Positions 1 through 17,874 of a stretch of 64,000 nucleotides of DNA are shown here, in pieces. The notes under the pieces are model-generated. The model saw only the letters and a list, made by a program, of their open reading frames with translations, was not told the origin of the DNA and did no database searches. Within the stretch, counting starts at the first letter, position 1. Each line of letters opens with the position of its first letter. The position numbers and the translations under genes were made by a program. The DNA lies in assembly GCA_964513375.1 (NCBI GenBank), contig CAZEMO010000006.1:7567-71566 (forward strand), written 5' to 3'. The DNA is from an uncultured Bacteriovoracaceae bacterium (GTDB lineage Bacteria > Desulfobacterota > Desulfomonilia > UBA1062).

Positions 1-273
1 AAAGCCATCGACTCAATACCAGTGGACGGCTTTACGGAATCTTCCGGGAAAAAGGCATTAAAGAGCAATATGAAAATGGTGCAGAAGATGCTTGGCAAAG
101 GACATTACAGCGATGCCTATAAGAAGCTGCAGGATGATATAATGGTTAAAGCCGGCGTGTGCAAGAATCCAGATCATGCTGATGGAAACAGCTGGCTTAA
201 AGACTGTGATGCCCGGACCAGACTCCACTGGGCTGTAAATGACATCATGGTACTGCTGAAGATTTTAGTTTAA
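1..273 (+). CDS. 3' end of a protein that starts before the window; short helical C-terminal domain, possibly FIMAH-like
   Basis: Frame open from base 1 (KAIDSIPVDG...) to TAA at 271-273; helical pattern with two Cys (GVC...KDC). Family guess is from recall only. Confidence 0.6.
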   Translation, partial: KAIDSIPVDGFTESSGKKALKSNMKMVQKMLGKGHYSDAYKKLQDDIMVKAGVCKNPDHADGNSWLKDCDARTRLHWAVNDIMVLLKILV

Positions 274-284
274 TTTGATCAAAA

Positions 285-1007
285 TCACTCCAGGTGATAA
301 GTGATGGGGATTACAAGCTGAGCCTCGCCGGGCGGCCTGGGAAAGGGGGCGGTGTCGCGGACTGTTTCGATGGCGTTCCTGTCCAGCAATATGAAACCGG
401 AACTTTTTATAACCTTCAACTCTCTTACGTAACCGTCGGCCGTGATGACAAAGGAAAGAAGCACCTTTCCCTGCCAGCCTTTTCTTTTTGCAGGATCAGG
501 GTAGCTGACGTTATTGAGGATCTTATTCCGGATATAGGCGAAGTGTTCGTTTAAATATTTTGCCCTGGCTGATTCTATGCCGTCATCGCCACTGCCCATG
601 CCTGAGCTTGTCCCAGTTCCTTCTTGCGTACCTCCTGCTATACCGGGAGAACCTTCCTTTATATCCTTACCCTGATCCGGTATTTCCGCTCCCATCTGGC
701 TGCTTTCCAGTTTATCGGCTTCCGGCAATTTGATTACCGGCAGAGTTTCAGGGGCAGGTGCCTTACGGGGAGCCTCTTCTTTCTTAGAGACCTGAGGGGT
801 TGCGGGGGTGATAAGTTTTGTATTTATTAATGGTAGCGGTTCGGACTCCTCGACCTTTTTGACTTCAGGTACGGGTTTCAGCAGATCGAAATCCATGACC
901 ATAGCCTTCTTGTATTGTCCAAGGAAAAGGCTGCAAATAATGATAAGGACAATAATTACTGTGTGAAGCAGGAAGGATAGCTGGAAGGCCTTCCTCTGAT
1001 AGCTCAT
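285..1007 (-). CDS. tonB: TonB family energy transducer
   Basis: N-terminal TM helix with His (SFLLHTVII), Pro/Lys/Glu-rich linker, C-terminal YPxxAxxxGxQGxV...DxxA domain; follows exbB/exbD. Confidence 0.93.
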   Translation of the reverse strand: MSYQRKAFQLSFLLHTVIIVLIIICSLFLGQYKKAMVMDFDLLKPVPEVKKVEESEPLPLINTKLITPATPQVSKKEEAPRKAPAPETLPVIKLPEADKLESSQMGAEIPDQGKDIKEGSPGIAGGTQEGTGTSSGMGSGDDGIESARAKYLNEHFAYIRNKILNNVSYPDPAKRKGWQGKVLLSFVITADGYVRELKVIKSSGFILLDRNAIETVRDTAPFPRPPGEAQLVIPITYHLE

Positions 1008-1384
1008 GGACCTTCCTCGGTCTGGAGGCTGATGCGTTTAAATTCAAGTCCCTTGATGACGTCCAGAACACTGACGAAGTTTTGAAGAATAATACTGCGA
1101 TCCGCTCTGATCAAGACAGGGACTTTTTTGTTCATGTTTCCAAGGTCAGTTTTTAATTCTTCCAGAGATACAAGCCGGGAATTCAAATATATTTTTCCAG
1201 CTTTATCGATTTCAACCGTCTGGGTCTTCAGGATCTCGCCTGAACTGCGATGGGCTTTGGGCAGATCCATGGGAATCATTCCGCTGGCTATAAAAGAAGA
1301 GGTCGTGAGTACAATCGTAAGGAGCACAAGCATGACGTCGACCAGCGGTATGACATTGATGTAATCAAACTCTTTTTCTTTCAT
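1004..1384 (-). CDS. exbD: ExbD/TolR biopolymer transport protein
   Basis: INVIPLVDVMLVLL TM motif and IRAD motif. Confidence 0.95.
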   Translation of the reverse strand: MKEKEFDYINVIPLVDVMLVLLTIVLTTSSFIASGMIPMDLPKAHRSSGEILKTQTVEIDKAGKIYLNSRLVSLEELKTDLGNMNKKVPVLIRADRSIILQNFVSVLDVIKGLEFKRISLQTEEGP

Positions 1385-1799
1385 GTTCGATTTCCCAGCT
1401 CATTTGCAGGACCTTAACTTTCCTCAAGAGAAAATTATATAGTGAGACAGCGGGGATGGCTACCAGAAGACCTATGGCAGTGGCCTTCAATGCAAGGGCC
1501 AGACCGACCATTATCTTGCCTGTGTCCATAAAGCCTTCCTGCCCGATCATATAAAAGGTAACCATGATGCCCAGAACAGTTCCGAGCAGGCCGATATAGG
1601 GAGCATTGCTGCCAATTGTCGCAATGAGGTGGATCTTTTTTGTAAGCTCCAGTTCCAGACTCTTTTGATCCGGGTAAGCATCCAGGTTAATATGCTTGAA
1701 AAAATAAAACCTTTCGATTGCAACCCCTATGGCAATGATGCTCAGGAAGATCAAAAAACCTATGATTCCATAATCTACGACATCTTTAAGCCATTCCAT
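1365..1799 (-). CDS. exbB: ExbB (short form) proton channel subunit
   Basis: LATIGSNAPYIGLLGTV and ALKATAIGLLVAIP motifs. Confidence 0.95.
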   Translation of the reverse strand: MEWLKDVVDYGIIGFLIFLSIIAIGVAIERFYFFKHINLDAYPDQKSLELELTKKIHLIATIGSNAPYIGLLGTVLGIMVTFYMIGQEGFMDTGKIMVGLALALKATAIGLLVAIPAVSLYNFLLRKVKVLQMSWEIEHERKRV

Positions 1800-1855
1800 T
1801 TTCTCTCCTCTGTCTGCACCTCTTTATTTGGCACAGGTGCACATATGTAATGCTT

Positions 1856-4279
1856 CTAAAAACTTGCCCTTGCGCCTGCATACCACATCCTTCCCGGGCC
1901 CGGGTTGAACGGATCGGCGTTATAATCATCCAGTACGTTTTTGCACATTATATATGCCTCGTAATGTTTTAAGAATTTCTGTGAAAGCTTGATGTCGATT
2001 TGAATGGGATTATGGAGTTCCTGTTGATAAAAGTATGATGTGGAGAAAGGATCGGTTGGTTGTGGAATGGAAGCCATTGTATACTGGATCTGGTTAAATT
2101 CCATATAACCGAATATGACCAGGTTTGTGCCTGTTCTAAAATACGTCCTCAAATCAAAGGTTATTTTATGTTCAGGGAGTTTTTCAAATTTGTCGCCTTT
2201 ATTTATGAAGGAATCGTCGACATCCGCCTGATTTCTGGCAAAGAGATATGTATATGAGGGTGAGAAACTTATATCCGCTATATTAAAAACATCAAAAAGA
2301 TTCAAATTCAGTGTTGCCTCAAGACCGTGTATAACTGCAGAATCAATATTCCTGTATATATAGTCGTCAATCTTCGTAATGTATATTTTTGTAATTTTAT
2401 CTTTGTAATCGCTGTAGAAATAATCCACACCAAAGATCAGATTTTTGTTGAAGAATGAAAATTCACAGCCGAGATCGAGATTGAATATCTTCTCAGGCTC
2501 AATGTTCACATCCCTGCTCCCCAGATCGGACGATGTCTGGTAGGGAGACACTGTTTTAGAATATGCCTGAAGGGTGGGGAAAGAAGTTTTCCGGGATGCG
2601 GCAGCCTTCAGCTTCAATAAGTCCTTTACAGGCTCATACAATATGTCTCCAACGGGATTGAAGGAGTCGCGCGTTCCCCAGAGCATGGAATCATCCTCGG
2701 CGATGTACTGGTCGATCATTTCAGTGCTTCCGTCGATTCCCTGTTTTTTCCTGTAATTTTCAAGATCCTGCGCATCATAAGAGATGCCGATTGTTAAATC
2801 CACATTATTCAGCAGCTTCATTTCGTCTTCTATGGCACAGGTGAGATAAGCTGCCCCGATTTCAAGTGTTTCGTATTTGCCGGTGCCGTAATATTTGATT
2901 ATCTTGGTTGATTCTTCGTTGTATGCCTGTTCCTCTTCTATGTGGTTGTTTACATAGTACAGCATGGCGAAGTTCAGCCTGTTCCATGACGCAAGTTTGA
3001 AAGAAGGATATATATTGAATCCGTAGGTGTCGCTTGTCCATATGGACCAGGTCATGGTATCCACATCCCTGTTATATGCCAGGACTTTCTCCAGCGGATC
3101 ATCATAAGCCATAAATTTGTTGGTATTTTCATAGTAGTAGGCATTGGCTTTTAATCCGAAGCCGCCTTTCTCGTAAATTATGTATGGAGACACGGCGAAA
3201 TCATTGTATTCGGGCCAGCGGCTTGACGTGTTGCGCAGGATATATGTAGTGTCCGGCAGTCTCCAGCCTTTCTTTCCGGTATAATCATTATAGGTATACA
3301 TGCTTCTCATATCTGTAAAATAAGAGCTGTTTTCCATTTCAGTCAGATTATAAAAACCCGTTGCCCCTATATCCAGATAAGGTGTTATATGGTATCCGAG
3401 TTTACCGTTAAATTTGTATTTTTCATATCCTATGTGATCCCATATCCCTGATTCGTTAAGATAGTAAGTGGCGGCAGAACTGCCGGGATGAGCATAGATA
3501 TCATTTAAAGTAAATCCATAAAGATCATAACGGGAAAGCTTCTGGAGCCAGTCCTCACGCTCTTCGCGGTCGAGTTTCTCTGATACCTTATACCCGTCTG
3601 ACTTATCGTACATGGCGGAGAACTGATAGTAAAAATTGCCTATGGGCGCGCCGTGGGCGAGGCTTGCCACAAAATTATTATATTCGCCGTACTCAGCTGT
3701 GACATCAAGGTACATTCTGGTGGGTTTTTTTCTGATGAGATTGATTGAACCGACGGCGCCCTTCGTGCCGTACAGGGCAGACGTCGTACCGCGGCTTACA
3801 ATGATCTCCGATATATCAGTCAGGCCTATATTATCAATGTCGATTGTTCCGTTGAAGGAATCGATCAGAGGAATGTCATCCACCATCAAGGCTACCTTGG
3901 ACATATCATATCCGCGCATATAAAACTGGGTAGTGCCTTTTCTCTGTGTCGATACCTGTATGCCGGGCACCTGATAAAGGACATCCTTCAGCTCTTTATC
4001 GCTTCTCTCTTCGATATCCTCTTCGGTAATGTCTGTAGTTGCGCCGCCTTTTACTACTTTGCCTTTATCAATGTCCTTAATGCGGCGCTCCTTGACGATA
4101 ATTTCTTCAAGCTGGTATTCATTATCGGTTTTTGTTTTTTTTGCCGGCTTGTCCTCATTTTCCAAAGGCTGGTTCTGCGATTGGACATCGCCTGCACTTT
4201 CAGTTTTGTTTGTTTCCTGCGCTATTAATGGTAGACCAGTTACAAACAGCAACAGTGTTATCAGAGTTAACAATCTCAT
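1856..4279 (-). CDS. TonB-dependent outer membrane receptor
   Basis: Signal peptide from ATG 4279 (MRLLTLITLL; ORF track extends to 4351), plug motifs VPGI...YMRGY...VALMVDDIPL and SALYG...GSINLI, beta-barrel, terminal Phe (GARASF). Confidence 0.93.
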   Translation of the reverse strand: MRLLTLITLLLFVTGLPLIAQETNKTESAGDVQSQNQPLENEDKPAKKTKTDNEYQLEEIIVKERRIKDIDKGKVVKGGATTDITEEDIEERSDKELKDVLYQVPGIQVSTQRKGTTQFYMRGYDMSKVALMVDDIPLIDSFNGTIDIDNIGLTDISEIIVSRGTTSALYGTKGAVGSINLIRKKPTRMYLDVTAEYGEYNNFVASLAHGAPIGNFYYQFSAMYDKSDGYKVSEKLDREEREDWLQKLSRYDLYGFTLNDIYAHPGSSAATYYLNESGIWDHIGYEKYKFNGKLGYHITPYLDIGATGFYNLTEMENSSYFTDMRSMYTYNDYTGKKGWRLPDTTYILRNTSSRWPEYNDFAVSPYIIYEKGGFGLKANAYYYENTNKFMAYDDPLEKVLAYNRDVDTMTWSIWTSDTYGFNIYPSFKLASWNRLNFAMLYYVNNHIEEEQAYNEESTKIIKYYGTGKYETLEIGAAYLTCAIEDEMKLLNNVDLTIGISYDAQDLENYRKKQGIDGSTEMIDQYIAEDDSMLWGTRDSFNPVGDILYEPVKDLLKLKAAASRKTSFPTLQAYSKTVSPYQTSSDLGSRDVNIEPEKIFNLDLGCEFSFFNKNLIFGVDYFYSDYKDKITKIYITKIDDYIYRNIDSAVIHGLEATLNLNLFDVFNIADISFSPSYTYLFARNQADVDDSFINKGDKFEKLPEHKITFDLRTYFRTGTNLVIFGYMEFNQIQYTMASIPQPTDPFSTSYFYQQELHNPIQIDIKLSQKFLKHYEAYIMCKNVLDDYNADPFNPGPGRMWYAGARASF

Positions 4280-4320
4280 TATTGCATCCCTGTACCCAGA
4301 ATCTATTTTTTTATAGAGAA

Positions 4321-4352
4321 AATGAATGCCGGTATGTTTACCGGCATTCATT
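4321..4352. terminator. Perfect 14-bp stem hairpin between lipoprotein gene and receptor gene; intra-operon terminator or mRNA stabiliser
   Basis: AATGAATGCCGGTA-tgtt-TACCGGCATTCATT; on the minus strand the stem runs into TTTTCTCT. Confidence 0.6.
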
Positions 4353-4395
4353 ATGCAGTTTATTCGATGTGATATTGATCGAATTCAATTAGTTC

Positions 4396-5664
4396 TTATT
4401 GATAAACTTCATCATACGCCTTCGCAAAAGCCGGGGGATTCTTTGCCGAGTAGTCGTATTCAACTGGAGAACTGCTGATCACCTCAATACTGACAGGGAA
4501 GTTTAACTTCGTTCCGCTGACAATATTGTTCGAGCCGTCAACGCGGACAATTAAATCAAAATCCACCAGGTAATAGGCCTGCTGCATATTGGCATAGGTC
4601 CAGCCCTGTCTGGCAAAACCGTCCACTGCAACTATCTTGTATGTATAGGCATTCGGGGTGTCGGTTATATAGTCAGTAAGGAACTGGTCAAGCGAAATGA
4701 CCTTTATATTCGAGTAAGGCCCGAAACTCTTAGTTTCTACATTGAACTTTGTAGTCGATTTACCTGTGACGGTGTTATAGGCAGTGTCGTCAACATAGCT
4801 GTCTGTGGTTGCCTGGACTTCAAAGGTTGCAAGCGATCCTGCTGCATCGGGTCTCTTAACATCGATTTTACGGAACATATATATGTCATATGCCCATTTA
4901 GTTCTATGCTTCCCTATAACACCGGGTACTGATGCCGGATAGAATGTTCTCCCGTCTTTGTCTATCATCAGCAGATAGCCCTGGTTGAACTGATCCCATC
5001 TCAGATCGGGAGTATATGCATTCTCAGAATCGAGGCGGAGAAAATCCGTACGGTTGCTGAATCCATCTTTATTGGATCGGGTGACTATGGAATACATTGC
5101 CCTGGCGTCATTCGTTCCCAGCTTGAGCTCAGGATCAGGTGTTGCGGCATTTACGACATTAATGTCAACAAACTGATCAAGTGAATATCCTGAAACATAT
5201 ACACCACCGGAATACAGTATGTCATCTGTCAGTGTATAGCCGGAAAACAGTGCTGCGTGCTCACCTTCGAGTGTGCCTCCCCCATTATAATATGCCCATT
5301 GATCCGGGAAGTTGTACTGTAAAAAATTGCTTGCAACGGGATCGACAACCTGTATAGTCCATGCTTTTGTGTACGTTCCGAACATGGAGGTCTCTGCAAC
5401 TGAGAGGGTATGGTCTCCAATGTCCGCAAACTTGGGTGTATAGGTATATTCAAGCCCAATGCCTTCCAGAACAACGGCATCATCAAGTGACCACACAACG
5501 CTCGTTGGCTTTAATAATGTCTTGATTGAAAAGGCGCATGAATCTCCAGCCGCAATCGCGACGGTTTGCTCCGACGGCGCGCTCTTCAGGATACACCCGT
5601 TAAGCAGGACAACGGCCATGAACAAGAACAGAATTCCCGATAATCTCCTCTTAAATCTTTCCAT
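4396..5664 (-). CDS. Lipoprotein of unknown function; N-terminal PKD/Ig-like domain plus a domain paralogous to 5736-6782
   Basis: Lipobox LNGC; PKD-like YTYTP...GDHTLSV; long blocks shared with neighbour (AYDIYMFRKIDVKRPDA, VISLDQFLTDYITDTP, KNPPAFAKAY). Confidence 0.85.
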   Translation of the reverse strand: MERFKRRLSGILFLFMAVVLLNGCILKSAPSEQTVAIAAGDSCAFSIKTLLKPTSVVWSLDDAVVLEGIGLEYTYTPKFADIGDHTLSVAETSMFGTYTKAWTIQVVDPVASNFLQYNFPDQWAYYNGGGTLEGEHAALFSGYTLTDDILYSGGVYVSGYSLDQFVDINVVNAATPDPELKLGTNDARAMYSIVTRSNKDGFSNRTDFLRLDSENAYTPDLRWDQFNQGYLLMIDKDGRTFYPASVPGVIGKHRTKWAYDIYMFRKIDVKRPDAAGSLATFEVQATTDSYVDDTAYNTVTGKSTTKFNVETKSFGPYSNIKVISLDQFLTDYITDTPNAYTYKIVAVDGFARQGWTYANMQQAYYLVDFDLIVRVDGSNNIVSGTKLNFPVSIEVISSSPVEYDYSAKNPPAFAKAYDEVYQ

Positions 5665-5735
5665 AACACTCTCCTTATAGTTTTTTTATAAATATTTGCC
5701 CTTGTATGATACCAGTCAAATCTTGGTACTGTTCA

Positions 5736-6782
5736 TCAATATGCCTTTGCAAAAGCCGGAGGATTTTTTGAAGAATAGTTGTATTCAACAGTAGACCCGC
5801 TTATAAGTTCAATCCTGACAGGATAATTAATCTTTGTACCGCTCACCACATTATTGGAATCATCGAGGCGGATGATGATATCGTAATCCGGCAGATAATA
5901 AGCCTGCTGCATATCGGCATAGGTCCAGCCTTCTTTAAAGGAGCCATCCAGAGCTAATATCTTATATGTATAGGAACCCGGGGTATCGGTTATATAGTCC
6001 GTTAGGAACTGATCCAGTGAAATTACCTTTACATTCGTGTAATCTCCGAAGCTTATTGTTTCTACATTGAATTTAGTGGTCGTCAGGGATGTTGCTAAAG
6101 TGTATGATGCATCATTCACGTAGCTTTCTGTAGTCGCCTGCGGCTCAAATGTAACAAGCGAGCCATCTGCATCAGGCCTTTTCACGTCGATCTTGCGGAA
6201 CATATATATGTCATAGGCATATTTATTATTATACATATTGGCTATATCGATTATCGAATCGGGGAAGTATGTTCTCCCGCTATAAATCAGATCCAGCAGA
6301 TAGCCCAGAATATACTGATCCCATCTGAGATCGGCATTATACAAACCTGAACCCACGAACTTGGTTCGGTTGGTGAAACCATCCTGGTTGGAGCGGACTA
6401 CTACGGAATATAACTTTCTGGCATCGTGAGTTCCCAGGACACCATCAGGGTCTGGTGTTGCAGCATTTACGGCATCCTTGTCTATAAACTGACCCAGAGC
6501 ATATCCTGAAACCAGTGTGATGCCGTCTTTATAAAGGATTCCTGTTGTAACTGTATAAGCTGAAAACAGGGCTGCTCTTTCATTGGCAACTGGTTTTCCA
6601 CTAAGCTCATACGCATATTGATCAGGCAGGGTATAGTGTAAAAATTGAGGTGCAGTACCGTCGTAAGGTGTATTTTCAGATGGTGTGTTGATGTTATCGG
6701 TTCCGCCGCCGCCTCCCCCTCCGCATGTTATAAAACTCAGAGCAATCAATGAAACGAGAAGCAATGAAAATATTTTTTTCAT
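5736..6782 (-). CDS. Lipoprotein of unknown function, paralog of 4396-5664
   Basis: Lipobox FITC followed by a poly-Gly tether; roughly 60% identical by eye to the C-terminal ~310 aa of the downstream paralog. Confidence 0.87.
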   Translation of the reverse strand: MKKIFSLLLVSLIALSFITCGGGGGGGTDNINTPSENTPYDGTAPQFLHYTLPDQYAYELSGKPVANERAALFSAYTVTTGILYKDGITLVSGYALGQFIDKDAVNAATPDPDGVLGTHDARKLYSVVVRSNQDGFTNRTKFVGSGLYNADLRWDQYILGYLLDLIYSGRTYFPDSIIDIANMYNNKYAYDIYMFRKIDVKRPDADGSLVTFEPQATTESYVNDASYTLATSLTTTKFNVETISFGDYTNVKVISLDQFLTDYITDTPGSYTYKILALDGSFKEGWTYADMQQAYYLPDYDIIIRLDDSNNVVSGTKINYPVRIELISGSTVEYNYSSKNPPAFAKAY

Positions 6783-6918
6783 ATTAAATACCCCCCTGGG
6801 ATTTGTTATTGAAATAATATAATATAGGGTACCTCTAACAATTCATTTCTGAATAAGGGCTATTGCTGGATCTGATCAATTAATGCTTAATGGGCCCCAA
6901 TTATTATAAGTACCCGAT

Positions 6919-6947
6919 ATAATATGCATCAACATGCATAATGTCAA
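6919..6947 (-). promoter_or_regulatory. Sigma70-type promoter for the lipoprotein-receptor-exbBD-tonB operon
   Basis: Minus strand TTGACA (6947-6942), 17 bp spacer, TATTAT (6924-6919). Confidence 0.7.
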
Positions 6948-6953
6948 TTCAAG

Positions 6954-6976
6954 TTTTATGATTTTAAATCATAAAA
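6954..6976. promoter_or_regulatory. Perfect 11-1-11 palindrome just upstream of the -35 box; candidate operator
   Basis: TTTTATGATTT-T-AAATCATAAAA. Confidence 0.5.
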
Positions 6977-7146
6977 TATTCTAAGATTTTCTGTTACAGC
7001 TGATCCAGCTGAAAACTTTAACGGGATCATGGTATGACATCTCATGTATTATTGGAAAAAAATGTTTCCGGCGGCGGGCTCAGTCAAGGAGGAAGACTGT
7101 TTCGCCTGCTGCCGGAAATGAGTTCAGGTAAGCATCTGAGTTATAT

Positions 7147-8517
7147 TCAACAATCCCCAGGTCGCTTTGTACAAGTAATGCTGAGCGCGACCGGAACAAA
7201 AATCATCATCGAAAAAATGAATATGCTGCTCATGGGAAATTCAGTTTCATTATTGCTGACCGATGATATCAGGCAAAGGCTGCTGGATATCTGGCTTGAG
7301 GTTACGATCTCATCATCAGGATCTTGCGGGACGGGATTATTCGGATCAATCGAACCATATACAACAATTTTCTTCTGGTCGACATAATCCCATCCAGCCT
7401 CGTATACGTCAATATCCGTGCATCCGGCCGGCAGGGGTTCCACCTTTATTATGGTTGCCGTCCTTGCAGAGTAGCCCGCGTTATGATCGTTCTCGGAACT
7501 CCAAGGCCAGACCACGGTCTGGTACGATGATTTCTGCGACTGGTCCGGGGCGCATATGGCCTTCTGAGGCACTACGACCCTGTATGGTCCTTCACCGTCA
7601 AGTTTGTTGTCTGCCGTGAGATGTCCCACATCAAGGTCGACGCCTTCTCGCTTTATGGCCAGCATGGCTTTAAGACCGGCCGTTACGAATATCGGGTCAC
7701 CGTTGCTCCTGCCTATGCAGGAAGGGGCGCTGTAGTCGCACCAGCCTATGATGGTTTCAAGCGAGGCATCCGCCTGGCTGTTATAGTAGTAAATAGAAGA
7801 AGGGTATTTGTAATCCTTGTCATAGACCGGATACAGTCCAGAGCTCTCATTGTTGTAGAGAGAGTAGCTCATTGCAAAACCGTCGGGAGAATATACCGTG
7901 ACGCCTGTTGCAGTCTGAAGTATTCCTGCGTCGTTCAGAAGAACCCTCAGTGAGACCCCCGTGTATTCGGCATAGAAGTCGATCGAGCGATTTGCATTCT
8001 GCAGCATGAACTGTGTGTGCTGTCTCAGCTTCTCCAGCATGTCTTTGGTATAGACCTTTTGCGGCGGGTCGATAAGTCCGGGATAATCACTTGCACTTCC
8101 CGGATATGTAGGCCTCTTTTCGCTGTCCTCCATGTTGTTTATCTCAACAGTGTTCGTATAAGTGTCCCCGTCTGAATCCAGGCCATCTATTGCAAGAACG
8201 GCAGCCGCGTTCCTGCCGTGGTTTCTATAGTCCCGCCCGTACTGGTTCAGTGTGTTGTCACCCTGGCCTGATATTCTTCCGTAATTCGTGATGGCATGGC
8301 AATACTGGCAGCTGCCCATCTGTGAACCTTTGTATGTGCCCCCGGTATGGCAGAGCTGGCACTGGTCGAGCTTAGTTCCTGCCATATCAGGATAGGCCAG
8401 CAGGAACTGGGGTGCATCCTTTTCACCTTCATGATGATATGCAGCGAACGCAGATGCTGCAGTCATGATAAAAACAACAATCATTCCGGATACTTTAAGC
8501 CATTTCATTGAGCTCAC
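7147..8517 (-). CDS. Exported diheme c protein with GEGP motif, sulfite-oxidase-like domain and C-terminal membrane anchor
   Basis: Signal peptide; CQLCH and CQYCH; YTGVSLRVLLNDAG...VYSPDGF and DGEGPYRVVVPQ; ends with CLISS, a hydrophobic segment and KR. Matches, from recall, the 'GEGP motif-containing diheme protein' family. Confidence 0.8.
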   Translation of the reverse strand: MSSMKWLKVSGMIVVFIMTAASAFAAYHHEGEKDAPQFLLAYPDMAGTKLDQCQLCHTGGTYKGSQMGSCQYCHAITNYGRISGQGDNTLNQYGRDYRNHGRNAAAVLAIDGLDSDGDTYTNTVEINNMEDSEKRPTYPGSASDYPGLIDPPQKVYTKDMLEKLRQHTQFMLQNANRSIDFYAEYTGVSLRVLLNDAGILQTATGVTVYSPDGFAMSYSLYNNESSGLYPVYDKDYKYPSSIYYYNSQADASLETIIGWCDYSAPSCIGRSNGDPIFVTAGLKAMLAIKREGVDLDVGHLTADNKLDGEGPYRVVVPQKAICAPDQSQKSSYQTVVWPWSSENDHNAGYSARTATIIKVEPLPAGCTDIDVYEAGWDYVDQKKIVVYGSIDPNNPVPQDPDDEIVTSSQISSSLCLISSVSNNETEFPMSSIFIFSMMIFVPVALSITCTKRPGDC

Positions 8518-8542
8518 CCTTTGTCCTGAAATGTTCTATCAT

Positions 8543-9859
8543 TTAGAGGTCCAGACAGTATCTTAATGTGGCTGTTGATTCCTTGTCGATATAGTCTATG
8601 CTTCCGTCCACAGGGTTAACCCTGACCTTGATGGGGTCTTTAAGGCTTGTGTAAGTATAGTCAAGAAGAATTCTGTGCTGCGGAAGCAGGAACCAGTTCA
8701 ATGCGGCGCTGAACGCATCAGCCCTTCTGGAAGATACGTTCTCACCGTCCTTGATCCAGTCGGGGTCTCCTACAAAGTGGTCTGTTCTCAGCGCAAGAGC
8801 GAAGGCGCCATATGTCTTGGCTGAAGGCTTGAACGGTTTTGATGGTACGATAATATTCACCACCCCTCCTGCAAGGGATATGGGTTCGCCGGTTATGCAC
8901 CATGCGGCTGCAGCATACCACGAATAGAATATTGCGTTCATTGCACGTGAATTCGCAGGTTTCAGTCCTGTGAATTCCAGATGAGTATATTCACCGGATA
9001 CCGCAAAAGGCCCCATCGCCCATGCGGCTTCCAGTCCGAAACGCTGTCTCAGATCTGCTTCCTGTATTACACCGAACTTTGTATTGGCATTGAGTACGTA
9101 GACATTGAGGCTGGTTCCAACCATTCCGGTGCTCTTGACCTGCAGGTTGATCGTGGATGCATCGATTTTCTTGGTGCTGCCGGATGCGCCTATCTGGAAC
9201 TGTTTGAGGGCATTTATCGAGGTTGCTGCAAACGGTTTTATTACAAGCCTTGCCGTGAGTTCCGGTTCGTCATGGTATGAACCCCTGGATGAACCGTCCT
9301 CTCCGTTGCCGTTGAATACGCCGGCTCCGAAATTGAACATGTCCTTATAAAATCCGCCTGTTGCCATCAATCCCACGTCACGGTGCGGGCTGAGATAATA
9401 GCCCATGGACCTCTCGGCAAAAAGTATCGCACGGTCAGGGGTCTGCCATTCCAGGCTGAAGGGTTCCTTGAACTGGCCTCCCCTAAGTTTAACGGGATTG
9501 CTGACGAGCCAGTCTACATAAACATCTGTCATATGTTTTTCCGCTGAAGATCCGTTGAATTCATATTCTGCATAGTACTGCAGCCAGTTTATCACCTGGC
9601 CGGAAACCCTCAGTCTGGCTTTCTTTATGTCGAAGCGGTTATCCGCCCTGTCTTTCTCTCCGTAGTAATGATACTCGGCCCAGATGGAGCCTCCTATTTT
9701 CAGCATCGGTCCATTCGGATCAGTGCTTCTCAAGTAAAATCCGTCCTTATATCCTGTTTCAACATTAAATGTGTCGGATGCGAATGCCGGAACTGACGGA
9801 ACCAGAAGTGCAAGGAAAAAGACCGCAAAAACAAACTTAAGTTTTCGATCACGCATCAC
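8543..9859 (-). CDS. OprO/OprP family (oxyanion-selective) porin
   Basis: Signal peptide; FDIKKARLRVSG, GQFKEPFSLE, DVGL...GVFNGNG motifs; GTG start with GAGGAGG SD. Confidence 0.85.
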   Translation of the reverse strand: MMRDRKLKFVFAVFFLALLVPSVPAFASDTFNVETGYKDGFYLRSTDPNGPMLKIGGSIWAEYHYYGEKDRADNRFDIKKARLRVSGQVINWLQYYAEYEFNGSSAEKHMTDVYVDWLVSNPVKLRGGQFKEPFSLEWQTPDRAILFAERSMGYYLSPHRDVGLMATGGFYKDMFNFGAGVFNGNGEDGSSRGSYHDEPELTARLVIKPFAATSINALKQFQIGASGSTKKIDASTINLQVKSTGMVGTSLNVYVLNANTKFGVIQEADLRQRFGLEAAWAMGPFAVSGEYTHLEFTGLKPANSRAMNAIFYSWYAAAAWCITGEPISLAGGVVNIIVPSKPFKPSAKTYGAFALALRTDHFVGDPDWIKDGENVSSRRADAFSAALNWFLLPQHRILLDYTYTSLKDPIKVRVNPVDGSIDYIDKESTATLRYCLDL

Positions 9860-10002
9860 AAAAGCCTCCTCGATAAGTATTTAATATCTTGCCCCATACT
9901 TCTAGGAATATATCGGTAATTTATTATGCCAAACTTTACATATAATTATCGGAAAATGCAGATGAATGAAATTTTTGTGGGAAATATACTGGCTGCTGTT
10001 TT

Positions 10003-11094
10003 TTACCTGTTTTTTATCACATGAACACCGGTGGCCTTGAATGATGCAATCACTTCCCTTCCTTCCTCAAGGGCCAGTTCGGCAGCTGACTGTTCGGTTA
10101 CATAAGCGATCACGGAAAAACCGCAGTCAATTTCGACTTTGAGGTAAAAGCTCTTTGGGACTATATGGGTTATTACGCCTGGAAACACGTTTCTTGCGCT
10201 GGTACTGAGATCCTTTGAAGTCGATACGGTTATATTTTCCGGCCTTATTCCCAGCAGCACTCTTTCTCCCGGCTCTGCCCGGCCGATGGCAGTAATCTGC
10301 ATGCCAGCTGCTTCTGTTACGATTATGCTGTTTTCTGATGATTTCACTACGCCTTCTATCAGGGTTTCCATACCCATGAAGGATGCTATGAATTCGTTTT
10401 CAGGATGGTTCATAACATCTGCGGGGAGGCCTTTCTGAACGATCTGTCCTTTGTCCATTACTGCGATTTCCGTTGACAGCCTTAATGCCTCATCCTGGTC
10501 ATGTGTTACCATAACAGCGGTTGCACCAGTCTCCTTTAATACTCTTCCGAAATCATCAATCAGTGCATCTCTGGTAGGCTTGTCAAGCGCTGAAAAAGGT
10601 TCATCCATGAATATTATGTCCGGCATGACTGCAAATGCGCGGGCCAGACTGACCCTTTGAGCTTCTCCGCCCGATAGAGTTCTGGCCGAGCGCTTCAGAA
10701 GATGGGTGATGCCGAAACGGTCAGCCTGAAGAGCGACCATTTCATTTATATCCTTCCGGGAAGCTCTTCTGAACCTGAGTCCTGATGAAATGTTTGCGGA
10801 AACGCTTGTGTCAAATAGAAGCGCCTCCTGAAAGATGCAGGCTGTCGAACGCCTGTAGTCAAGCATGTCGCCGTTGTGGGACACTTTCTCTCCCCTGAAA
10901 AGAATCGTACCTGAAGAAGGTTTGAGCAGACCTGCAACGGCAAGCAGCAGGCTTGATTTGCCCGCACCGTTGGGGCCTATGAGTGTCAGATGGGACCCCT
11001 TTGCTATGTCAAGTCCGCTGACATTGACAACCTCAACCCCGCCGCGGGCGACTCTGAAATCCTTTATTGAAAGTATTGGTGTCTGATTACTCAT
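10003..11094 (-). CDS. tupC: Tungstate ABC transporter ATP-binding subunit with C-terminal TOBE domain
   Basis: Walker A GPNGAGKS, LSGGEAQR, DEPFSALD, TOBE-type SARNVF...FKATGVHV. Confidence 0.9.
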   Translation of the reverse strand: MSNQTPILSIKDFRVARGGVEVVNVSGLDIAKGSHLTLIGPNGAGKSSLLLAVAGLLKPSSGTILFRGEKVSHNGDMLDYRRSTACIFQEALLFDTSVSANISSGLRFRRASRKDINEMVALQADRFGITHLLKRSARTLSGGEAQRVSLARAFAVMPDIIFMDEPFSALDKPTRDALIDDFGRVLKETGATAVMVTHDQDEALRLSTEIAVMDKGQIVQKGLPADVMNHPENEFIASFMGMETLIEGVVKSSENSIIVTEAAGMQITAIGRAEPGERVLLGIRPENITVSTSKDLSTSARNVFPGVITHIVPKSFYLKVEIDCGFSVIAYVTEQSAAELALEEGREVIASFKATGVHVIKNR

Positions 11095-11789
11095 CTCGGC
11101 CTTTTCCTCTGCTGTATAAGCGTAAGCCCGAGGTTGATCAGGAATGTCAGCAGAAGCAGGATAACGCCCAGGGCTATCGCTATATCAAAATTTCCTTTTC
11201 CTGTTTCCATGACAGTGGCTGTTGTAAGCACCCGCGTATAGCCCTTGATGTTGCCGCCGACCATTATCGAGGCCCCGACCTCGGAAATAACTCCTCCGAA
11301 GCCTGCCATGATGGCTGCCATTAAAGGCAGTCTGGCTTCCTTTGCAAGTATCCACAGCATCTGCGCCCGGGTTGCCCCGAGCCCAAGTATTTGAAGGCGC
11401 ATCTTCTCGGGCAGGTTCTGGATGGCGGCTATGGAAAGTCCCATGATTATCGGTGTGGCTATTACGGCCTGCGCTATAATTATCGCTGAGGGCGTGTAAA
11501 GGAGCCCGAGACTTCCGAGCGGGCCGTTTCTCCATAAAAATATGGTTACGAAAAGGCCGACAACAACAGGGGGCAGTCCCATTCCTGTGTTGATTGTACT
11601 GATTATGAGCTGTCTGCCGGGAAAATTATTCAAGCCTATCAGCATCCCGAAGCCTATGCCCAGGAGAAGGCTTATCAAGGTAGCAAGACCGGATACTTTC
11701 AGCGTAAGAAGGGTGATCCCTATTACCTCAGGGTCAAAAGAAAAAAGCAGGACAATAGCCTGCCAGATGCCTCTTATGATTAAATCCAT
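11091..11789 (-). CDS. tupB: Tungstate ABC transporter permease
   Basis: MGLPPVVVGL and EVGASIMVGGNIKGYTRVLTTA motifs. Confidence 0.93.
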   Translation of the reverse strand: MDLIIRGIWQAIVLLFSFDPEVIGITLLTLKVSGLATLISLLLGIGFGMLIGLNNFPGRQLIISTINTGMGLPPVVVGLFVTIFLWRNGPLGSLGLLYTPSAIIIAQAVIATPIIMGLSIAAIQNLPEKMRLQILGLGATRAQMLWILAKEARLPLMAAIMAGFGGVISEVGASIMVGGNIKGYTRVLTTATVMETGKGNFDIAIALGVILLLLTFLINLGLTLIQQRKRPR

Positions 11790-11802
11790 AGAATGGATAT
11801 AA

Positions 11803-11864
11803 GGGCCTTCCTTGTCCAGGGGAAGGCCCGCTCAACCGGAATTAGGAGAGGTTGCCGGATTGAG
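11803..11864. other. Two adjacent stem-loops between tupA and tupB (likely mRNA stabilisers)
   Basis: GGGCCTTCC...GGAAGGCCC (11803-11829) and CTCAACCGG...CCGGATTGAG (11831-11864). Confidence 0.5.
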
Positions 11865-11883
11865 TTCAAAATATTAATTCTTT

Positions 11884-12720
11884 CTATTCGGGTTTGCCTG
11901 CATCAGGGAAGAAAAGCGGCGAACCATATTTTGTCACGCCGAACTTGCCGATCTCATCCTGGGTCTTCTTTGAGACCATGAAATCAGAAAATGCCTTGGC
12001 GCCTTCAGCATTAACCTTGGGGAACTTTGCCGGATTGACCTCTATCACATGGTAAATATTTAGCAGCCCCTTGTCACCCTCGCAGAGTATGACCAGTCCG
12101 AGATTTTTCTTCAGAGAGAGATATGTGCCTCTGTCAGTAATGGTGTAGCCGTTCTTTTCGGCTGCGACGTTGAGTGTCTGTCCCATGCCGAGGCCTGTCT
12201 GCTGATACCATTTCTGTCCTTCAGGGTTAATATCTGCCGCTTTCCACAGGTTTTTTTCCTTTGCATGCGTTCCTGAATTGTCGCCTCGAGAGAGGAAGAG
12301 CGATCCGCTGTCAGCGATCTGCTTCATGGCATCCTTTGCCGTTTTTGCAGATTTTACCTTCGCCGGGTCTGCTGCAGGGCCTACTATAACGAAGTCGTTG
12401 TGCATTATGAGTTTGCGGTTTATGCCGTTTCCTGCATCTACGAATTTCTTTTCTGCATCAGGGGAATGTACCAGCAGTACATCCGCCTCACCCCTTTCTC
12501 CCATAGCCATTGCCTGACCTGAACCGACGGCAATTGTCTTGACGAAGTAGCCGGTCTGTTTTTCGAATATGGGAAGGAGATCATCCAGAAGACCCGTGTC
12601 CTGTGTGCTGGTTGTCGTGGCTAGGATGACAGTCTTGTTGGCCGGTGCGGCCTGTGATGGAGCGGCAAGCATCAGTGCGGTGATAAGTGCAATGAATACA
12701 GTCAGAAATTGTTTTTTCAT
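11884..12720 (-). CDS. tupA: Tungstate-binding periplasmic protein
   Basis: Signature LATTTSTQDTGLL, GSGQA...GEADV, SRGDNSGTH; likely start ATG 12720 (MKKQFL...). Confidence 0.95.
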   Translation of the reverse strand: MKKQFLTVFIALITALMLAAPSQAAPANKTVILATTTSTQDTGLLDDLLPIFEKQTGYFVKTIAVGSGQAMAMGERGEADVLLVHSPDAEKKFVDAGNGINRKLIMHNDFVIVGPAADPAKVKSAKTAKDAMKQIADSGSLFLSRGDNSGTHAKEKNLWKAADINPEGQKWYQQTGLGMGQTLNVAAEKNGYTITDRGTYLSLKKNLGLVILCEGDKGLLNIYHVIEVNPAKFPKVNAEGAKAFSDFMVSKKTQDEIGKFGVTKYGSPLFFPDAGKPE

Positions 12721-12736
12721 AATATTGGTCTCCTTT

Positions 12737-13654
12737 TTATTTTTCAGGCCACATGAGCATACCGGAACATTTGAAATCGTAATGTCCGAATGCGCCAGCC
12801 TGGTTTTTGAATTCATCAGACCTTAAAACCGTTATCAGTGCCTGAACCTGGCGTTTAAAGAAATTGTCCCTGGCAAGCACCATGTCGAACCTTTCAGTTG
12901 AAAGCGGAATAAAATCAAGTCCCAGCATGGAAGCGACTGAACCTGTTGCAATACCAGCATCTGCTTTACCCGATAACACGGCGAGGCCGACTTCAAGATG
13001 AGTAAAAACCATATTGTCGTAGCCGGTTATTGATGAGGATTCAATGCTGACCTTTTCAATAAGGTCATCAAGCAGAAGCCTTGTCCCTGAACCTGCCTGA
13101 CGGTTTATTATCCTGATCTTTTTTTTGCTGAAGTCATCTATGGTTTTTATATGCTTGGGATTTCCGGCGGATGTTATAATGCCTGTCTCCCGTGTAAACA
13201 TGTTCAGAACTACTGCATCAAGACCTGGAGCTAACCTGGGAATAAAAGGGATATTATATTGTCCGCTTTCCTTATCGAACAGATGTGACCATGCAATATC
13301 GACCAGGCCTTTCCCCAGAGCAGTGAGTCCCTGAGAACTCCCGGTGTTGGCAGAGAATATGAATATGTCAGGGTATAATAATCTGAGCTTAGAAAGCAGA
13401 AGATCGAGAACCGGATCGTTGCTGCCTGCGGCAAGAAGAGCTCCCGGAACGCGGGCGGCCTTTTCCTTCGCCTGATGTATCCCGGCTCTGGCGTTTTCTT
13501 CGATCCATGAATCGATCATGTGCTTCGGGAAAATCCATTTTCCTGTAGCCTTGGTGCAGGGAAGCTTCCCTTCCTTTATAAGGGCGTAAACCTGTTTTTC
13601 GTGTATTTCGAGATAGGAAGCGACCTCTTTTGTGTTCATCATTTCTTTTGACAT
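12737..13654 (-). CDS. Excisionase-like HTH (HTH_17) plus PBP-like molybdate/tungstate-binding domain regulator, TaoR-like
   Basis: MNTKEVASYL...VYALIKEGKLPC...GKWIFPK; AGSND, GSSQGL, NRQAGSGTR; directly upstream of tupABC. Confidence 0.85.
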   Translation of the reverse strand: MSKEMMNTKEVASYLEIHEKQVYALIKEGKLPCTKATGKWIFPKHMIDSWIEENARAGIHQAKEKAARVPGALLAAGSNDPVLDLLLSKLRLLYPDIFIFSANTGSSQGLTALGKGLVDIAWSHLFDKESGQYNIPFIPRLAPGLDAVVLNMFTRETGIITSAGNPKHIKTIDDFSKKKIRIINRQAGSGTRLLLDDLIEKVSIESSSITGYDNMVFTHLEVGLAVLSGKADAGIATGSVASMLGLDFIPLSTERFDMVLARDNFFKRQVQALITVLRSDEFKNQAGAFGHYDFKCSGMLMWPEK

Positions 13655-13755
13655 GACTGGTTTCCAATAAAACGAAATCTCTATGGTGTCCAGAAAAATG
13701 GTACTTATGTTAACTCATATTTACTTCTATAGGTTCATATAGGAATATTTAGGGT

Positions 13756-14730
13756 TTAAAGCTTAAGCCTGTTCCTTCGTTCTGATTCGTTTAGAAAGCA
13801 GCCTTCGATACATTTCGGTGTGCAATGACCGTTGCACGGCTCGACATGGATTGTAACGCTTGTGTCGGGAAAGTGTTCGGAAATGTGCATAGTAAGGTCA
13901 TCGGTAATATCATGTGAGGCTTCCACCGTCATGTATGAATCGACCATGAGATGAAATTCCACAAACCTGAAATGACCGGCCTTTCTGGTTCGCAGCTGGT
14001 GGAGCCCTAGGACTTGCGGTCTATGAATAATTGCCAGCTCATGAATCCAGTTTGTCTCTGAAGCGGGGAGTCCTACATCCAGAAGGTCCTTTGCAGATTC
14101 CTTGGTGAGCTGGAATGCGGCTTTTATTATCATGAGCGCGACAACCAGAGCCGCAACAGGGTCAACCCAGTGGAGGTTGAAGGGGAGTTTCAGCATATCA
14201 TCGATGAATAAAGCCGACATTCCAATCATGACCCCGCCGGATGTATAAACATCTGTCCTTAAATGCCAGGCATCAGCCATCAGGGCCACGGAGTCAGTTT
14301 CCTTTCCGACCTTGAAGAGCTTTTGCGAAACAAAAATATTCACAACGACCGATACGAACATTACGAGAACACCCATGCCGGTTTTGTCGACTCCTGTCGG
14401 GTTCATGAGTTTATGGATTGCCTCGTAAATGATCCAGGCTGCAGCAAGAAAGATGAGGATGGCTTCAATAGTACCTGATATGTTCTCAATTTTGCCGTGA
14501 CCCCAGGGATGTTGTCTGTCGGCAGGGATTCCCGATGTTCGTACAGAGAACAATGCAATCACTGCCGCAAGAAGGTCAACTCCTGAGTGTATCGCCTCGG
14601 ATATGATCGATACTGATCCGATCATAATGCCGACGATGAGCTTTAAAAGAACAAGGATCGAGTTCGATGCAACAGATAGAGCGGCAACCCTTGTTTTTTT
14701 TATGTAATTATCAGAATTTCTGGAAGACAT
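13756..14730 (-). CDS. Cation diffusion facilitator (FieF-like) with Cys-rich tail
   Basis: SEAIHSGVD, HPWGHGKIE, DAWHLRTD, HVEP motifs. Confidence 0.92.
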   Translation of the reverse strand: MSSRNSDNYIKKTRVAALSVASNSILVLLKLIVGIMIGSVSIISEAIHSGVDLLAAVIALFSVRTSGIPADRQHPWGHGKIENISGTIEAILIFLAAAWIIYEAIHKLMNPTGVDKTGMGVLVMFVSVVVNIFVSQKLFKVGKETDSVALMADAWHLRTDVYTSGGVMIGMSALFIDDMLKLPFNLHWVDPVAALVVALMIIKAAFQLTKESAKDLLDVGLPASETNWIHELAIIHRPQVLGLHQLRTRKAGHFRFVEFHLMVDSYMTVEASHDITDDLTMHISEHFPDTSVTIHVEPCNGHCTPKCIEGCFLNESERRNRLKL

Positions 14731-14883
14731 GATAACATCCCGGTTAATTATATTTTTACATAGATTCTACTGTTGTGAGAGTAATTACATACATAAAAAG
14801 TTTTGACAATACAGCAATCAGGAACTCCTTATTAAAATAGCAGGAGTTATAATATAAATAACCTTCTTGGGTATCTTTTATGC

Positions 14884-15090
14884 TTACTCAGGAAGGATTT
14901 TCCTGATACGTTCCAGCAGTCCGATTACAATCTTATCACGCTCTTTCAGGAGATCTTTAAACTCATACGTACGTGCATGATGAAGCTCGACTCTCGTTGC
15001 AACTTCTTCTTTTTTCAACAGCATGCTGATAAGGCCAAGTTCTTCTTTACTGACTTCAAGATTTAACATGGTTTCCTCCTTATCAAACAA
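14884..15090 (-). CDS. Small hypothetical protein
   Basis: 68 aa ORF; probable start at MLNLEV preceded by AAGGAGG. Confidence 0.6.
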   Translation of the reverse strand: MFDKEETMLNLEVSKEELGLISMLLKKEEVATRVELHHARTYEFKDLLKERDKIVIGLLERIRKILPE

Positions 15091-15114
15091 GTTTATGTAT
15101 CTGTTTCCTTCCTG

Positions 15115-16017: not shown

Positions 16018-16115
16018 TTTGCCTCCATTCGGGGACCGTTATATTTAATTTTGTTTAATATTGTCATTGGATAAATATATTTGACATATGTTTAATTATC
16101 CTTATATATGGTTAT

Positions 16116-16195
16116 AAGCTATAGCACAAGTCTATGGGCTATAGACCTCCTTTTTTAGGCCCACTACCACCTTATTGAGTGGGCCTCTTTTTTTT
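16116..16195 (+). ncRNA. Candidate ~80 nt sRNA or leader RNA
   Basis: TTGACA at 16081 with TATATA/TATATG near 16103-16110; hairpin GTCTAT/ATAGAC; ACCTCCT at 16145-16151; terminator AGGCCCACT/AGTGGGCCT plus T8. Confidence 0.45.
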
Positions 16196-16204
16196 GCTAT
16201 TTAG

Positions 16205-16912: not shown

Positions 16913-16935
16913 ATATATGCTCAAGTAAGCTCTGT

Positions 16936-17856: not shown

Positions 17857-17874
17857 AGTTATATTTATTAAGAG

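Follow-up and report, generated by a model that had tools for sequence, protein, structure and literature searches.

A predicted TonB-dependent outer-membrane uptake system for tungsten or molybdenum encoded beside tupABC in Desulfomonilia

The window analyzed in this study is a 64-kb stretch of contig CAZEMO010000006.1 (assembly GCA_964513375.1), which belongs to the Desulfomonilia lineage, and its positions 285-13654 carry a tungstate importer gene set, tupABC, together with two lipoprotein genes, a TonB-dependent receptor (TBDR) gene and a full set of energizing genes, exbB, exbD and tonB. We propose that the lipoproteins, the TBDR and their dedicated ExbBD-TonB complex form an energy-driven outer-membrane uptake system for tungsten (W) or molybdenum (Mo) that supplies TupABC, a reading that we consider probable, if not secure, on the basis of gene content and gene neighborhoods. 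The lipoprotein and receptor genes are a strictly paired, co-distributed core, and this core recurs in distinct lineages beside genes of Mo/W uptake or metabolism that are not orthologous to one another.

RESULTS

The lipoprotein-receptor block and tupABC

Positions 285-13654 hold 12 genes, all on the minus strand. The first-pass annotation of the window had given the same genes at the same coordinates as a single co-oriented string and had counted 11, although its own list totals 12. Families were assigned by Pfam and NCBIfam searches of the window proteins, as follows.

5736..6782, minus strand: lipoprotein 1 (348 amino acids), with a lipobox; no Pfam or NCBIfam family
4396..5664, minus strand: lipoprotein 2 (422 amino acids), with a lipobox, a paralog of lipoprotein 1 with an extra N-terminal stretch of ~70 amino acids; no Pfam or NCBIfam family
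1856..4351, minus strand: TBDR; Plug (PF07715) 3.1e-18, barrel (PF00593) 7.5e-23
1365..1799, minus strand: exbB; MotA_ExbB 1.1e-28
1004..1384, minus strand: exbD; ExbD 1.5e-22
285..1007, minus strand: tonB; TonB_C 8.8e-17
12737..13654, minus strand: regulator with HTH_17 (MerR/excisionase-type; PF12728 6.4e-13) and PBP_like (PF12727 1.5e-64) domains
11884..12816, minus strand: tupA, predicted periplasmic tungstate-binding protein; PBP_like_2 2.3e-53, ATTTST motif
11091..11789, minus strand: tupB, ABC permease; BPD_transp_1, NF038017 268.8 bits (above cut-off)
10003..11094, minus strand: tupC, ABC ATPase (ABC_tran 1.3e-28) with a C-terminal oxyanion-binding TOBE domain (3.7e-13)
8543..9859, minus strand: outer-membrane porin of the Porin_O_P family; PF07396 8.6e-41, 140.8 bits against a gathering score of 20.9
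7147..8517, minus strand: diheme c-type cytochrome with a GEGP motif; NF041762 401.8 bits against a cut-off of 300

The TBDR carries both the plug and the barrel domain and is encoded in the same operon as exbB, exbD and tonB, which identifies it as a TonB-dependent transporter. Its true start is probably at position 4279, giving a protein of 807 amino acids. A total of 62 relatives were found at E <= 1e-30 among 5.8 billion sequences, and this clade is uncharacterized; the similarity to receptors of solved structure is at the level of the plug only. No NCBIfam subfamily cut-off was reached by the TBDR: it is not of the BtuB type (TIGR01779, 65.5 against 599.7; NF007926, 62.5 against 836), nor is it a siderophore or heme receptor by the corresponding models (TIGR01783, 101 against 223.5; TIGR01786, 95.8 against 323.75).

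The two lipoproteins are 63% identical over 311 residues (E = 7e-140) and belong to a previously unnamed family, of which lipoprotein 1 is the founding member, with 84 relatives among 5.8 billion sequences. The lipobox cysteine, Cys20, is kept in at least 90% of the members. For 39 remote relatives from a profile search of 1.84 billion proteins, Pfam gave no informative family; the many matches of this search to N-terminal CarboxypepD_reg-type repeats alone were ignored. Of the fetched loci, 30 could be read downstream, and without exception the TBDR gene in these has between one and three lipoprotein genes directly upstream on its own strand. The relatives of both come from metagenome-assembled genomes or metagenomes, namely from Desulfobacterota, Spirochaetota and unassigned contigs; the Desulfobacterota hosts are Desulfomonilia, Smithella, Syntrophaceae, Desulfobacteraceae and Desulfobacterales.

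TupA aligns with two solved structures, 5my5 (Desulfovibrio alaskensis TupA; E = 5.6e-74) and 3lr1 (a Geobacter "tungstate-binding protein"; E = 2.2e-68), with the ATTTST motif in register in both cases, in agreement with the earlier assignment of tupA from its TTTS signature. The scores with the NCBIfam equivalog models for TupA (259.7 bits) and TupB (174 bits) are under the cut-offs of 400 and 320, respectively, and these are therefore divergent Tup proteins, which are named here from their structural relatives and the motif rather than from equivalog scores. The best NCBIfam match of TupC is WtpC (298.8 bits, under the cut-off). The tupA open reading frame overlaps the regulator gene by 80 bases (12737-12816); translation probably begins at an internal ATG, at 12720 (MKKQFL..., a signal peptide), giving 278 amino acids, as in the related locus L011. 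The PBP_like domain of the regulator, which resembles periplasmic binding proteins and is a sensor domain, is also found in the TunR-like regulator of L006.

The order of the regulator and tupABC is kept in the related loci L001, L002 and L011, with which the window also shares a CDF cation-efflux gene and a LysR regulator gene (13756-14730 and 15115-16017) in synteny with the tup locus. Between L001 and the window the identities are 99% for LysR, 95% for TupA, 89% for lipoprotein 1 and 85% for TupC. The L001 contig is labeled "uncultured Bacteriovoracaceae"; the other close relatives are Desulfomonilia, and the label is probably an error of binning or taxonomy. An additional tupA paralog, ~40% identical to that of the window, is present in L001 (6160-7065) and L002 (4253-5161), and a gene for a 69-amino-acid TOBE (molbindin-like) protein follows tupC in L002 and L011 (5455-5664 in the latter); the window has neither.

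Recurrence beside Mo/W genes

The fetched loci were sorted into nine architecture types (A to I) and three distant loci (L036, L037 and L038), the neighborhood being taken as 10 kb. The genes scored as Mo/W genes were those for tup and mod ABC importers, TOBE proteins, MoeA, FmdE, a TunR-like regulator or a molybdoenzyme. The types are as follows, with the genes beside the block.

Type A, Desulfomonilia (the lineage of the window): regulator-tupABC, with or without TOBE
Type B, Smithella: modABC, FmdE, DUF364, a CcsA-like/ResB-like pair, and a double Oxidored_molyb-like protein fused to TP_methylase, with a signal peptide
Type C, Desulfobacteraceae: divergent regulator with HTH_3 and PBP_like domains (TunR-like), modABC-TOBE
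Type D, Spirochaetota: MoeA upstream, modABC downstream
Type E, Desulfobacterales: MoeA, DUF364, a radical SAM (S-adenosylmethionine) gene, Peripla_BP_2, a second TBDR
Type F: OxMolyb2 (a 344-amino-acid exported double Oxidored_molyb protein), then tupABC, or TOBE with an XDH-family molybdoenzyme and a GEGP gene
Type G, Syntrophaceae and others: metallophosphoesterase, FecCD, ABC ATPase, radical SAM, Peripla_BP_2, methyltransferase, DUF364
Type H: TP_methylase and a CcsA-like/ResB-like pair only
Type I (short contig): methyltransferase, radical SAM, OxMolyb-like protein

Unambiguous Mo/W genes lie within 10 kb of the block in six of the nine types and at two of the three distant loci. The particular genes vary by lineage, as in nonorthologous replacement; in type F, tupABC follows the Oxidored_molyb protein in L010 and in the contig bearing protein P0077, and L032 has TOBE and the XDH-family molybdoenzyme. 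By our rough estimate, which assumes two to three Mo/W loci per genome, 1-2% of random genes would lie within 10 kb of such a locus. Homologs of the block might have been found mostly away from tup and mod genes, an outcome that the first-pass annotation had named as fatal to its proposal; they usually stand beside Mo/W genes. This recurrence across lineages supports a link between the block and W/Mo uptake. It also suggests that the names "outer membrane cobalamin receptor" and "iron complex outermembrane receptor", which automatic pipelines give to members of the receptor clade (P0341, P0342, P0360 and others), are wrong.

In type G, where DUF364 is the sole gene of such a kind, the Mo/W link is weaker. 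For the Peripla_BP_2 proteins of types E and G, HI_1472 is a better match (E = 5e-26 to 7e-16) than the binders of heme, B12 or siderophores; HI_1472 is MolA, a binder of molybdate and tungstate. The distant loci hold receptors of only 37-44% identity, and two of these receptors have a lipoprotein-family gene directly upstream (hmmsearch E = 1e-54 to 8e-57). In L037 the queried receptor is preceded by a 248-amino-acid protein with no significant match to the lipoprotein family, and the lipoprotein position of a second receptor lies outside the readable stretch. OxMolyb2 and the CcsA-like/ResB-like pair are found at all three distant loci, and ExbBD-TonB follows at two, the third contig ending before that point. 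L036 carries FecCD/Peripla_BP_2, TOBE, lipoprotein, TBDR, OxMolyb2, CcsA-like/ResB-like, ExbBD-TonB and modABC-TOBE genes in a single string, and L037 has FmdE nearby.

Several further genes recur beside the block. A short pair of CcsA-like (~250 amino acids) and ResB-like (260-290 amino acids) proteins is encoded next to the TBDR, even where the adjoining OxMolyb2 has no CXXCH motif, at the following positions.

L003: 4920-6460
L017: 7127-8723
L036: 13901-15546
L037: 1724-3365
L038: 13703-15320

TP_methylase (tetrapyrrole methylase) domains occur in proteins with signal peptides (L003, 6477-8225; L004; L005; L023; L017, 8852-9757). In Smithella this domain is fused behind two SUOX-like domains, and an SAM-dependent methylase fold outside the cytoplasm is odd; the exported domain might be a ligand-binding module. 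A third module (L013, 15182-18407; L015, 4108-9239; L027-L030) comprises a metallophosphoesterase, a 375-380-amino-acid protein of no known family and an AmmeMemoRadiSam-like radical SAM enzyme with weak matches to the W-cofactor oxidoreductase maturase and to MoaA.

These neighbors bear on the form in which the metal would be taken up. TBDRs typically take chelated metals, and the substrate could be a secreted W/Mo chelator (a "tungstophore" or "molybdophore") made by the DUF364, radical SAM and methyltransferase genes of some lineages and exported by EamA- or AA_permease-type proteins, in which case the organism of the window would be a user and not a maker. Genes of all these kinds, together with FecCD/Peripla_BP_2 importers, recur beside the block, and azetidine-forming DUF364 chemistry is related to the synthesis of nicotianamine-type chelators. 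One DUF364 enzyme, which is found together with radical SAM methylases, makes an azetidine amino acid by cyclizing an SAM derivative (PMC12930334). However, a biosynthetic role for these genes is a guess, and none of the candidates (DUF364, radical SAM, methyltransferase), nor OxMolyb2 or TP_methylase, is encoded elsewhere in the window. No recognizable genes for nonribosomal peptide synthetases, synthetases of the nonribosomal-peptide-synthetase-independent siderophore type or opine synthases were seen, and the Peripla_BP_2 proteins are at least as close to the oxyanion binder MolA as to chelate binders. We consider a dedicated chelator of this kind unlikely, although it is the best placed of the specific alternatives.

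Fold of the exported proteins

The GEGP protein has a Sec signal, two CXXCH motifs (CQLCH and CQYCH), a central domain and a hydrophobic C-terminal tail. Its GEGP motif reads LDGEGPYR, in which G308, G310 and R313 are invariant in the family, a large one of more than 1,000 relatives. The AlphaFold model has a low overall pLDDT (predicted local distance difference test) of 58.9, the central domain being better. A Foldseek search of the PDB with this model gave PruR (7kos; E = 1.9e-3, probability 1.0) as the top match, followed by SorA, SoxC and YedY (probability 0.5-0.75 for SorA and SoxC). The alignment of the GEGP family with that of OxMolyb2, which passes Pfam Oxidored_molyb, has an hhalign probability of 77%, and the NCBIfam GEGP model matches OxMolyb2 at 2.4e-8. 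A SUOX/PruR fold is supported for the central domain by these model comparisons. The protein also has a subthreshold NCBIfam match to SoxC (15 bits), and an invariant Cys260 was noted in the SUOX comparison as a possible counterpart of the Mo-ligand cysteine.

The model of lipoprotein 1 (AlphaFold2, pLDDT 86.8) is of better quality, and its best fold match is again PruR (7kp2), at a weak E value of 0.059 and a probability of 0.66. hhalign places the C-terminal domain of this family in register with the second SUOX-like domain of OxMolyb2 (probability 34-47%). The lipoproteins show no BLASTP relation to the GEGP protein, with hhalign probabilities of 8% and 2%, and PF00174 (Oxidored_molyb) matches neither the GEGP protein nor either lipoprotein. 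Profile searches of the PDB sequences with the remote lipoprotein relatives and with the GEGP alignment gave nothing useful. The molybdopterin-binding fold that had previously been ascribed to all three exported proteins is thus supported for the GEGP protein and no more than suggested for the lipoproteins.

GEGP, lipoprotein and OxMolyb2-type proteins all have Sec-type signals with no twin-arginine motif, which argues against classical molybdenum cofactor (Moco) enzymes, as these are loaded in the cytoplasm. They resemble PruR-like binding modules that carry no cofactor. PruR is a Moco-free periplasmic pterin-binding protein of Agrobacterium and Vibrio with the SUOX fold (PMC11194511). The window proteins share with it the Sec export and, as predicted for the GEGP protein, a Moco-free form of the SUOX fold, and PruR heads the fold matches of the GEGP protein and, at weak scores, those of lipoprotein 1. 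However, PruR is a single domain of ~150 amino acids that regulates the cyclase DcpA and is encoded upstream of dcpA, whereas the window proteins are larger, are fused to heme motifs or anchored by lipid, and are encoded beside transport genes, with no dcpA-type gene in the window.

These similarities raise the question, which goes back to a proposal of the first-pass annotation, of whether an intact pterin-type cofactor (Moco, its tungsten counterpart Wco, or molybdopterin) or another pterin is captured by way of the SUOX/PruR-fold proteins, the cofactor or its metal then being salvaged. We know of no demonstrated case in which bacteria take up Moco, a labile cofactor. The structural matches to PruR and the molybdoenzymes, the register of the lipoprotein C-terminal domain with OxMolyb2, the recurrence of exported Oxidored_molyb-positive proteins beside the TBDR and the presence of MoeA next to the block in two lineages would all fit such a route, as would the recurrent metallophosphoesterases, which could act on a dinucleotide cofactor; the Sec-type signals, which argue against cytoplasmic loading of Moco, fit a PruR-like binding role (PMC11194511). 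On the other hand, the lipoprotein-SUOX similarity is under the usual confidence and does not extend to the GEGP profile, the GEGP model is itself of low confidence, and the partners downstream are oxyanion importers (Tup, Mod and MolA-like) with no cofactor carrier among them. Cofactor capture is, in our view, improbable.

The porin-GEGP cassette

The porin gene lies directly upstream of the GEGP gene, and this order is seen again in three of three unrelated contexts (L033, L034 and L035) in which there are no tup, mod or TBDR genes; the neighbors there are regulators, Rnf genes or an alpha-2-macroglobulin gene, not genes for metal uptake. L001 lacks the pair, and its lipoprotein operon comes directly after tupC. 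Because of this constant pairing and the absence from L001, the porin is the partner of the GEGP protein, and the two form a separate, variably present two-gene cassette. The same facts do not support the idea, implied in the first-pass annotation, that the porin is a first route for tungstate beside tupABC. The Porin_O_P and GEGP diheme pair may be a porin-cytochrome module; the porin has a weak NCBIfam match (16 bits) to ExtI, a porin of the selenite/tellurite operon, and no paper in the library searched mentions the GEGP family.

The GEGP family is nonetheless tied to the block in two ways. In L032, which is unrelated, a GEGP gene is found close to the block, and the Desulfomonilia loci that reach far enough all have a second GEGP paralog flanking tonB. 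In the window this second gene is cut by the left edge.

1..273, plus strand: 3' end (last 90 codons) of a second GEGP-family diheme gene, convergent with tonB

The product is 61% identical (E = 3e-35) to the C terminus of a 492-amino-acid GEGP paralog in L011. In the closest relatives, L011 among them, the next genes after this one are CcsA and ResB, which serve cytochrome c maturation, and the locus therefore extends beyond the window.

Transcription units and regulatory signals

The 12 genes probably form three transcription units, as judged from a hairpin after the GEGP gene and a separate promoter of the lipoprotein operon: the regulator with tupABC, the porin with the GEGP gene, and the two lipoprotein genes with the TBDR, exbB, exbD and tonB. 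The relevant elements are as follows.

7054..7118, minus strand: terminator-like hairpin and U-run, directly after the GEGP stop codon
6919..6947, minus strand: sigma-70-type promoter of the lipoprotein-TBDR-exbBD-tonB operon, TTGACA-17-TATTAT, 11 of 12 consensus matches
6924-6939: perfect palindrome ATGCAT-N4-ATGCAT, exactly between the -35 and -10 elements of this promoter

The hairpin folds at -26.5 kcal/mol (z = -5.5), and none of 200 shuffled sequences was equally stable. The near-consensus promoter, which had already been recognized in the first-pass annotation, is kept in three relatives, including L001 and L002, and in one relative it stands directly after tupC. The palindrome is confined to the lipoprotein promoter, is preserved in part in L001 and L002, and has the look of a repressor site.

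A 14-mer, GGTACTTATAWTAA, occurs with one mismatch at 6901-6914 (minus strand) and 13700-13713 (plus strand), which are the promoters of the lipoprotein operon and the regulator-tupABC operon and its only positions, and relatives retain it. As a possible shared operator it is a lead only, having been derived post hoc from both sites, and 13% of shuffled sequences give two hits. The promoter regions, at 6880-6950 and 13655-13755, include an element GGTACTTAT..TAA and the palindrome.

An Rfam search found no cobalamin or Moco riboswitch, either in window positions 1-20000 at E <= 1 or in eight loci at the gathering score; the sole match, STnc430, was put down to chance. The 5' untranslated region of the lipoprotein operon has no conserved structure. 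With the E. coli-type consensus, the only one tried, the best Fur site matched at 12 of 19 positions, which is the background level.

DISCUSSION

In the system that we propose, the lipoproteins would be anchored in the outer membrane beside the receptor and would bind a W/Mo species, whether a chelate, an otherwise bound form or the free oxyanion. The TBDR would move this species into the periplasm with the proton-motive force relayed by ExbBD-TonB, and cofactor-free proteins of the SUOX/PruR fold, which are the two GEGP diheme proteins here and OxMolyb2 elsewhere, may receive or process it there. TupA would then take the tungstate for import into the cell by TupBC, and the PBP_like regulator probably senses the oxyanion. 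The sequence comparisons show the gene content, with its three probable transcription units, the strict pairing of lipoprotein and receptor genes and their return beside Mo/W genes in many lineages, and they support the SUOX/PruR fold of the GEGP protein. What is taken up and in which form, where the lipoproteins sit and what they do, the hand-over to TupA and the regulation by W/Mo we infer from the genes themselves and their recurrent company.

A bolder version, which we put forward tentatively as a possibility, is that anaerobes take up W/Mo bound to an organic ligand, either an SAM-derived chelator from the neighboring DUF364, radical SAM and methyltransferase genes or a pterin-type cofactor that other cells release, through the lipoprotein-TBDR core, with the SUOX/PruR-fold modules (lipoproteins, OxMolyb2 and GEGP proteins) binding the ligand and the hemes freeing the metal as an oxyanion that TupABC or ModABC could import. 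In bacteria it would be the first "tungstophore", or else the first route of Moco salvage.

Several points weigh against a W/Mo uptake function. The support is wholly one of genomic association, and every relative is a metagenome-assembled genome or a metagenome contig. Small oxyanions normally cross the outer membrane through porins, and the need for a TBDR is itself an assumption. A promoter of its own and the terminator-like hairpin set the lipoprotein operon apart, and therefore its cotranscription with tupABC is not expected; the 14-mer common to both promoters, found post hoc, is statistically insecure. The architecture types of L017 and L030 and the distant locus L038 have none of the scored Mo/W genes in the sequence available, type G carries just DUF364 and the MolA-like binders, and the FecCD/Peripla_BP_2, radical SAM, TP_methylase and CcsA-like genes at many loci would suit a tetrapyrrole or chelate substrate.

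Taken to their end, these points would make the adjacency to tupABC incidental and the block an importer of an iron chelate, of heme or another tetrapyrrole, or of a corrinoid. The insulation of the operon, the cobalamin and iron-complex labels of the pipelines, the CcsA-like/ResB-like, TP_methylase, FecCD/Peripla_BP_2 and radical SAM neighbors in other lineages and the lack of tup, mod, TOBE and MoeA genes in the available sequence of types G, H and I and of L038 can all be read in this way; however, the return of Mo/W genes across lineages by nonorthologous replacement, the absence of a cobalamin riboswitch from window positions 1-20000 and the eight loci and of a Fur box of the E. coli type, and receptor scores far under the NCBIfam cut-offs for BtuB, siderophore and heme receptors leave such an importer only a slim chance.

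If the proposed W/Mo uptake system is real, its consequences extend beyond this locus. Syntrophs and sulfate reducers require tungsten and molybdenum for key enzymes such as formate dehydrogenases and aldehyde oxidoreductases, yet where conditions are sulfidic and anoxic these metals are scarce or held in forms that cells cannot use. Their passage over the outer membrane has so far been left to "porins", and a dedicated, energy-driven stage at this membrane would fill a gap in W/Mo homeostasis. A function would be given to two families that have none, namely the lipoproteins and the receptor clade now called a cobalamin or iron receptor, and the block would be a marker of W/Mo limitation in anaerobic digesters and sediments. 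Furthermore, the Sec-exported SUOX/PruR-fold proteins would extend this fold from enzymes and signaling to the trafficking of a metal or cofactor.

Among known systems, the inner-membrane part is the most familiar. The window genes share with other TupABC importers the TTTS-type motif and a permease and TOBE-bearing ATPase in the usual order and differ in that the NCBIfam equivalog cut-offs are not reached. The type II molybdate/tungstate importer MolBC-A (HI1470-1472) is absent from the window, and by sequence the binders of types E and G resemble its HI_1472 component. We know of no dedicated TonB-dependent outer-membrane stage described beside a Tup system, and no paper in the library searched ties a TBDR to tup or to tungsten uptake.

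Pairs of a TBDR and a surface lipoprotein are known for B12 (BtuB-BtuG), heme (HmuR-HmuY) and glycans (SusC-SusD). The block resembles these systems in the strict coupling of the lipoprotein gene to the TBDR gene, here directly upstream, from which capture and hand-over may be presumed by analogy. It differs in that the lipoproteins resemble BtuG, HmuY and SusD neither in sequence nor in fold, none of these being among the top 50 Foldseek matches of the lipoprotein 1 model, and have no Pfam or NCBIfam model, in the W/Mo context, and in its hosts, which are Desulfobacterota and Spirochaetota and not Bacteroidota.

Active scavenging of molybdate also has precedents. The catechol siderophores of Azotobacter act as molybdophores, and in Pseudomonas aeruginosa a ModA secreted by the type VI secretion system docks on IcmP for molybdate, as cited in PMC11734730. 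Both have in common with the proposed system the active acquisition of molybdate beyond porin diffusion when it is scarce, whereas their machinery is other, their hosts are aerobes and neither has a lipoprotein or SUOX-fold part. A likeness in layout is offered by the TonB-dependent uptake of lanthanides with the chelator methylolanthanin (PMC11317620), in which a dedicated TBDR is likewise encoded with metal-specific periplasmic and inner-membrane components; the metal is different, and the chelator there is known. Set beside these systems, the block is predicted to combine known machinery with a new specificity and two new protein families, the lipoproteins and the receptor clade.

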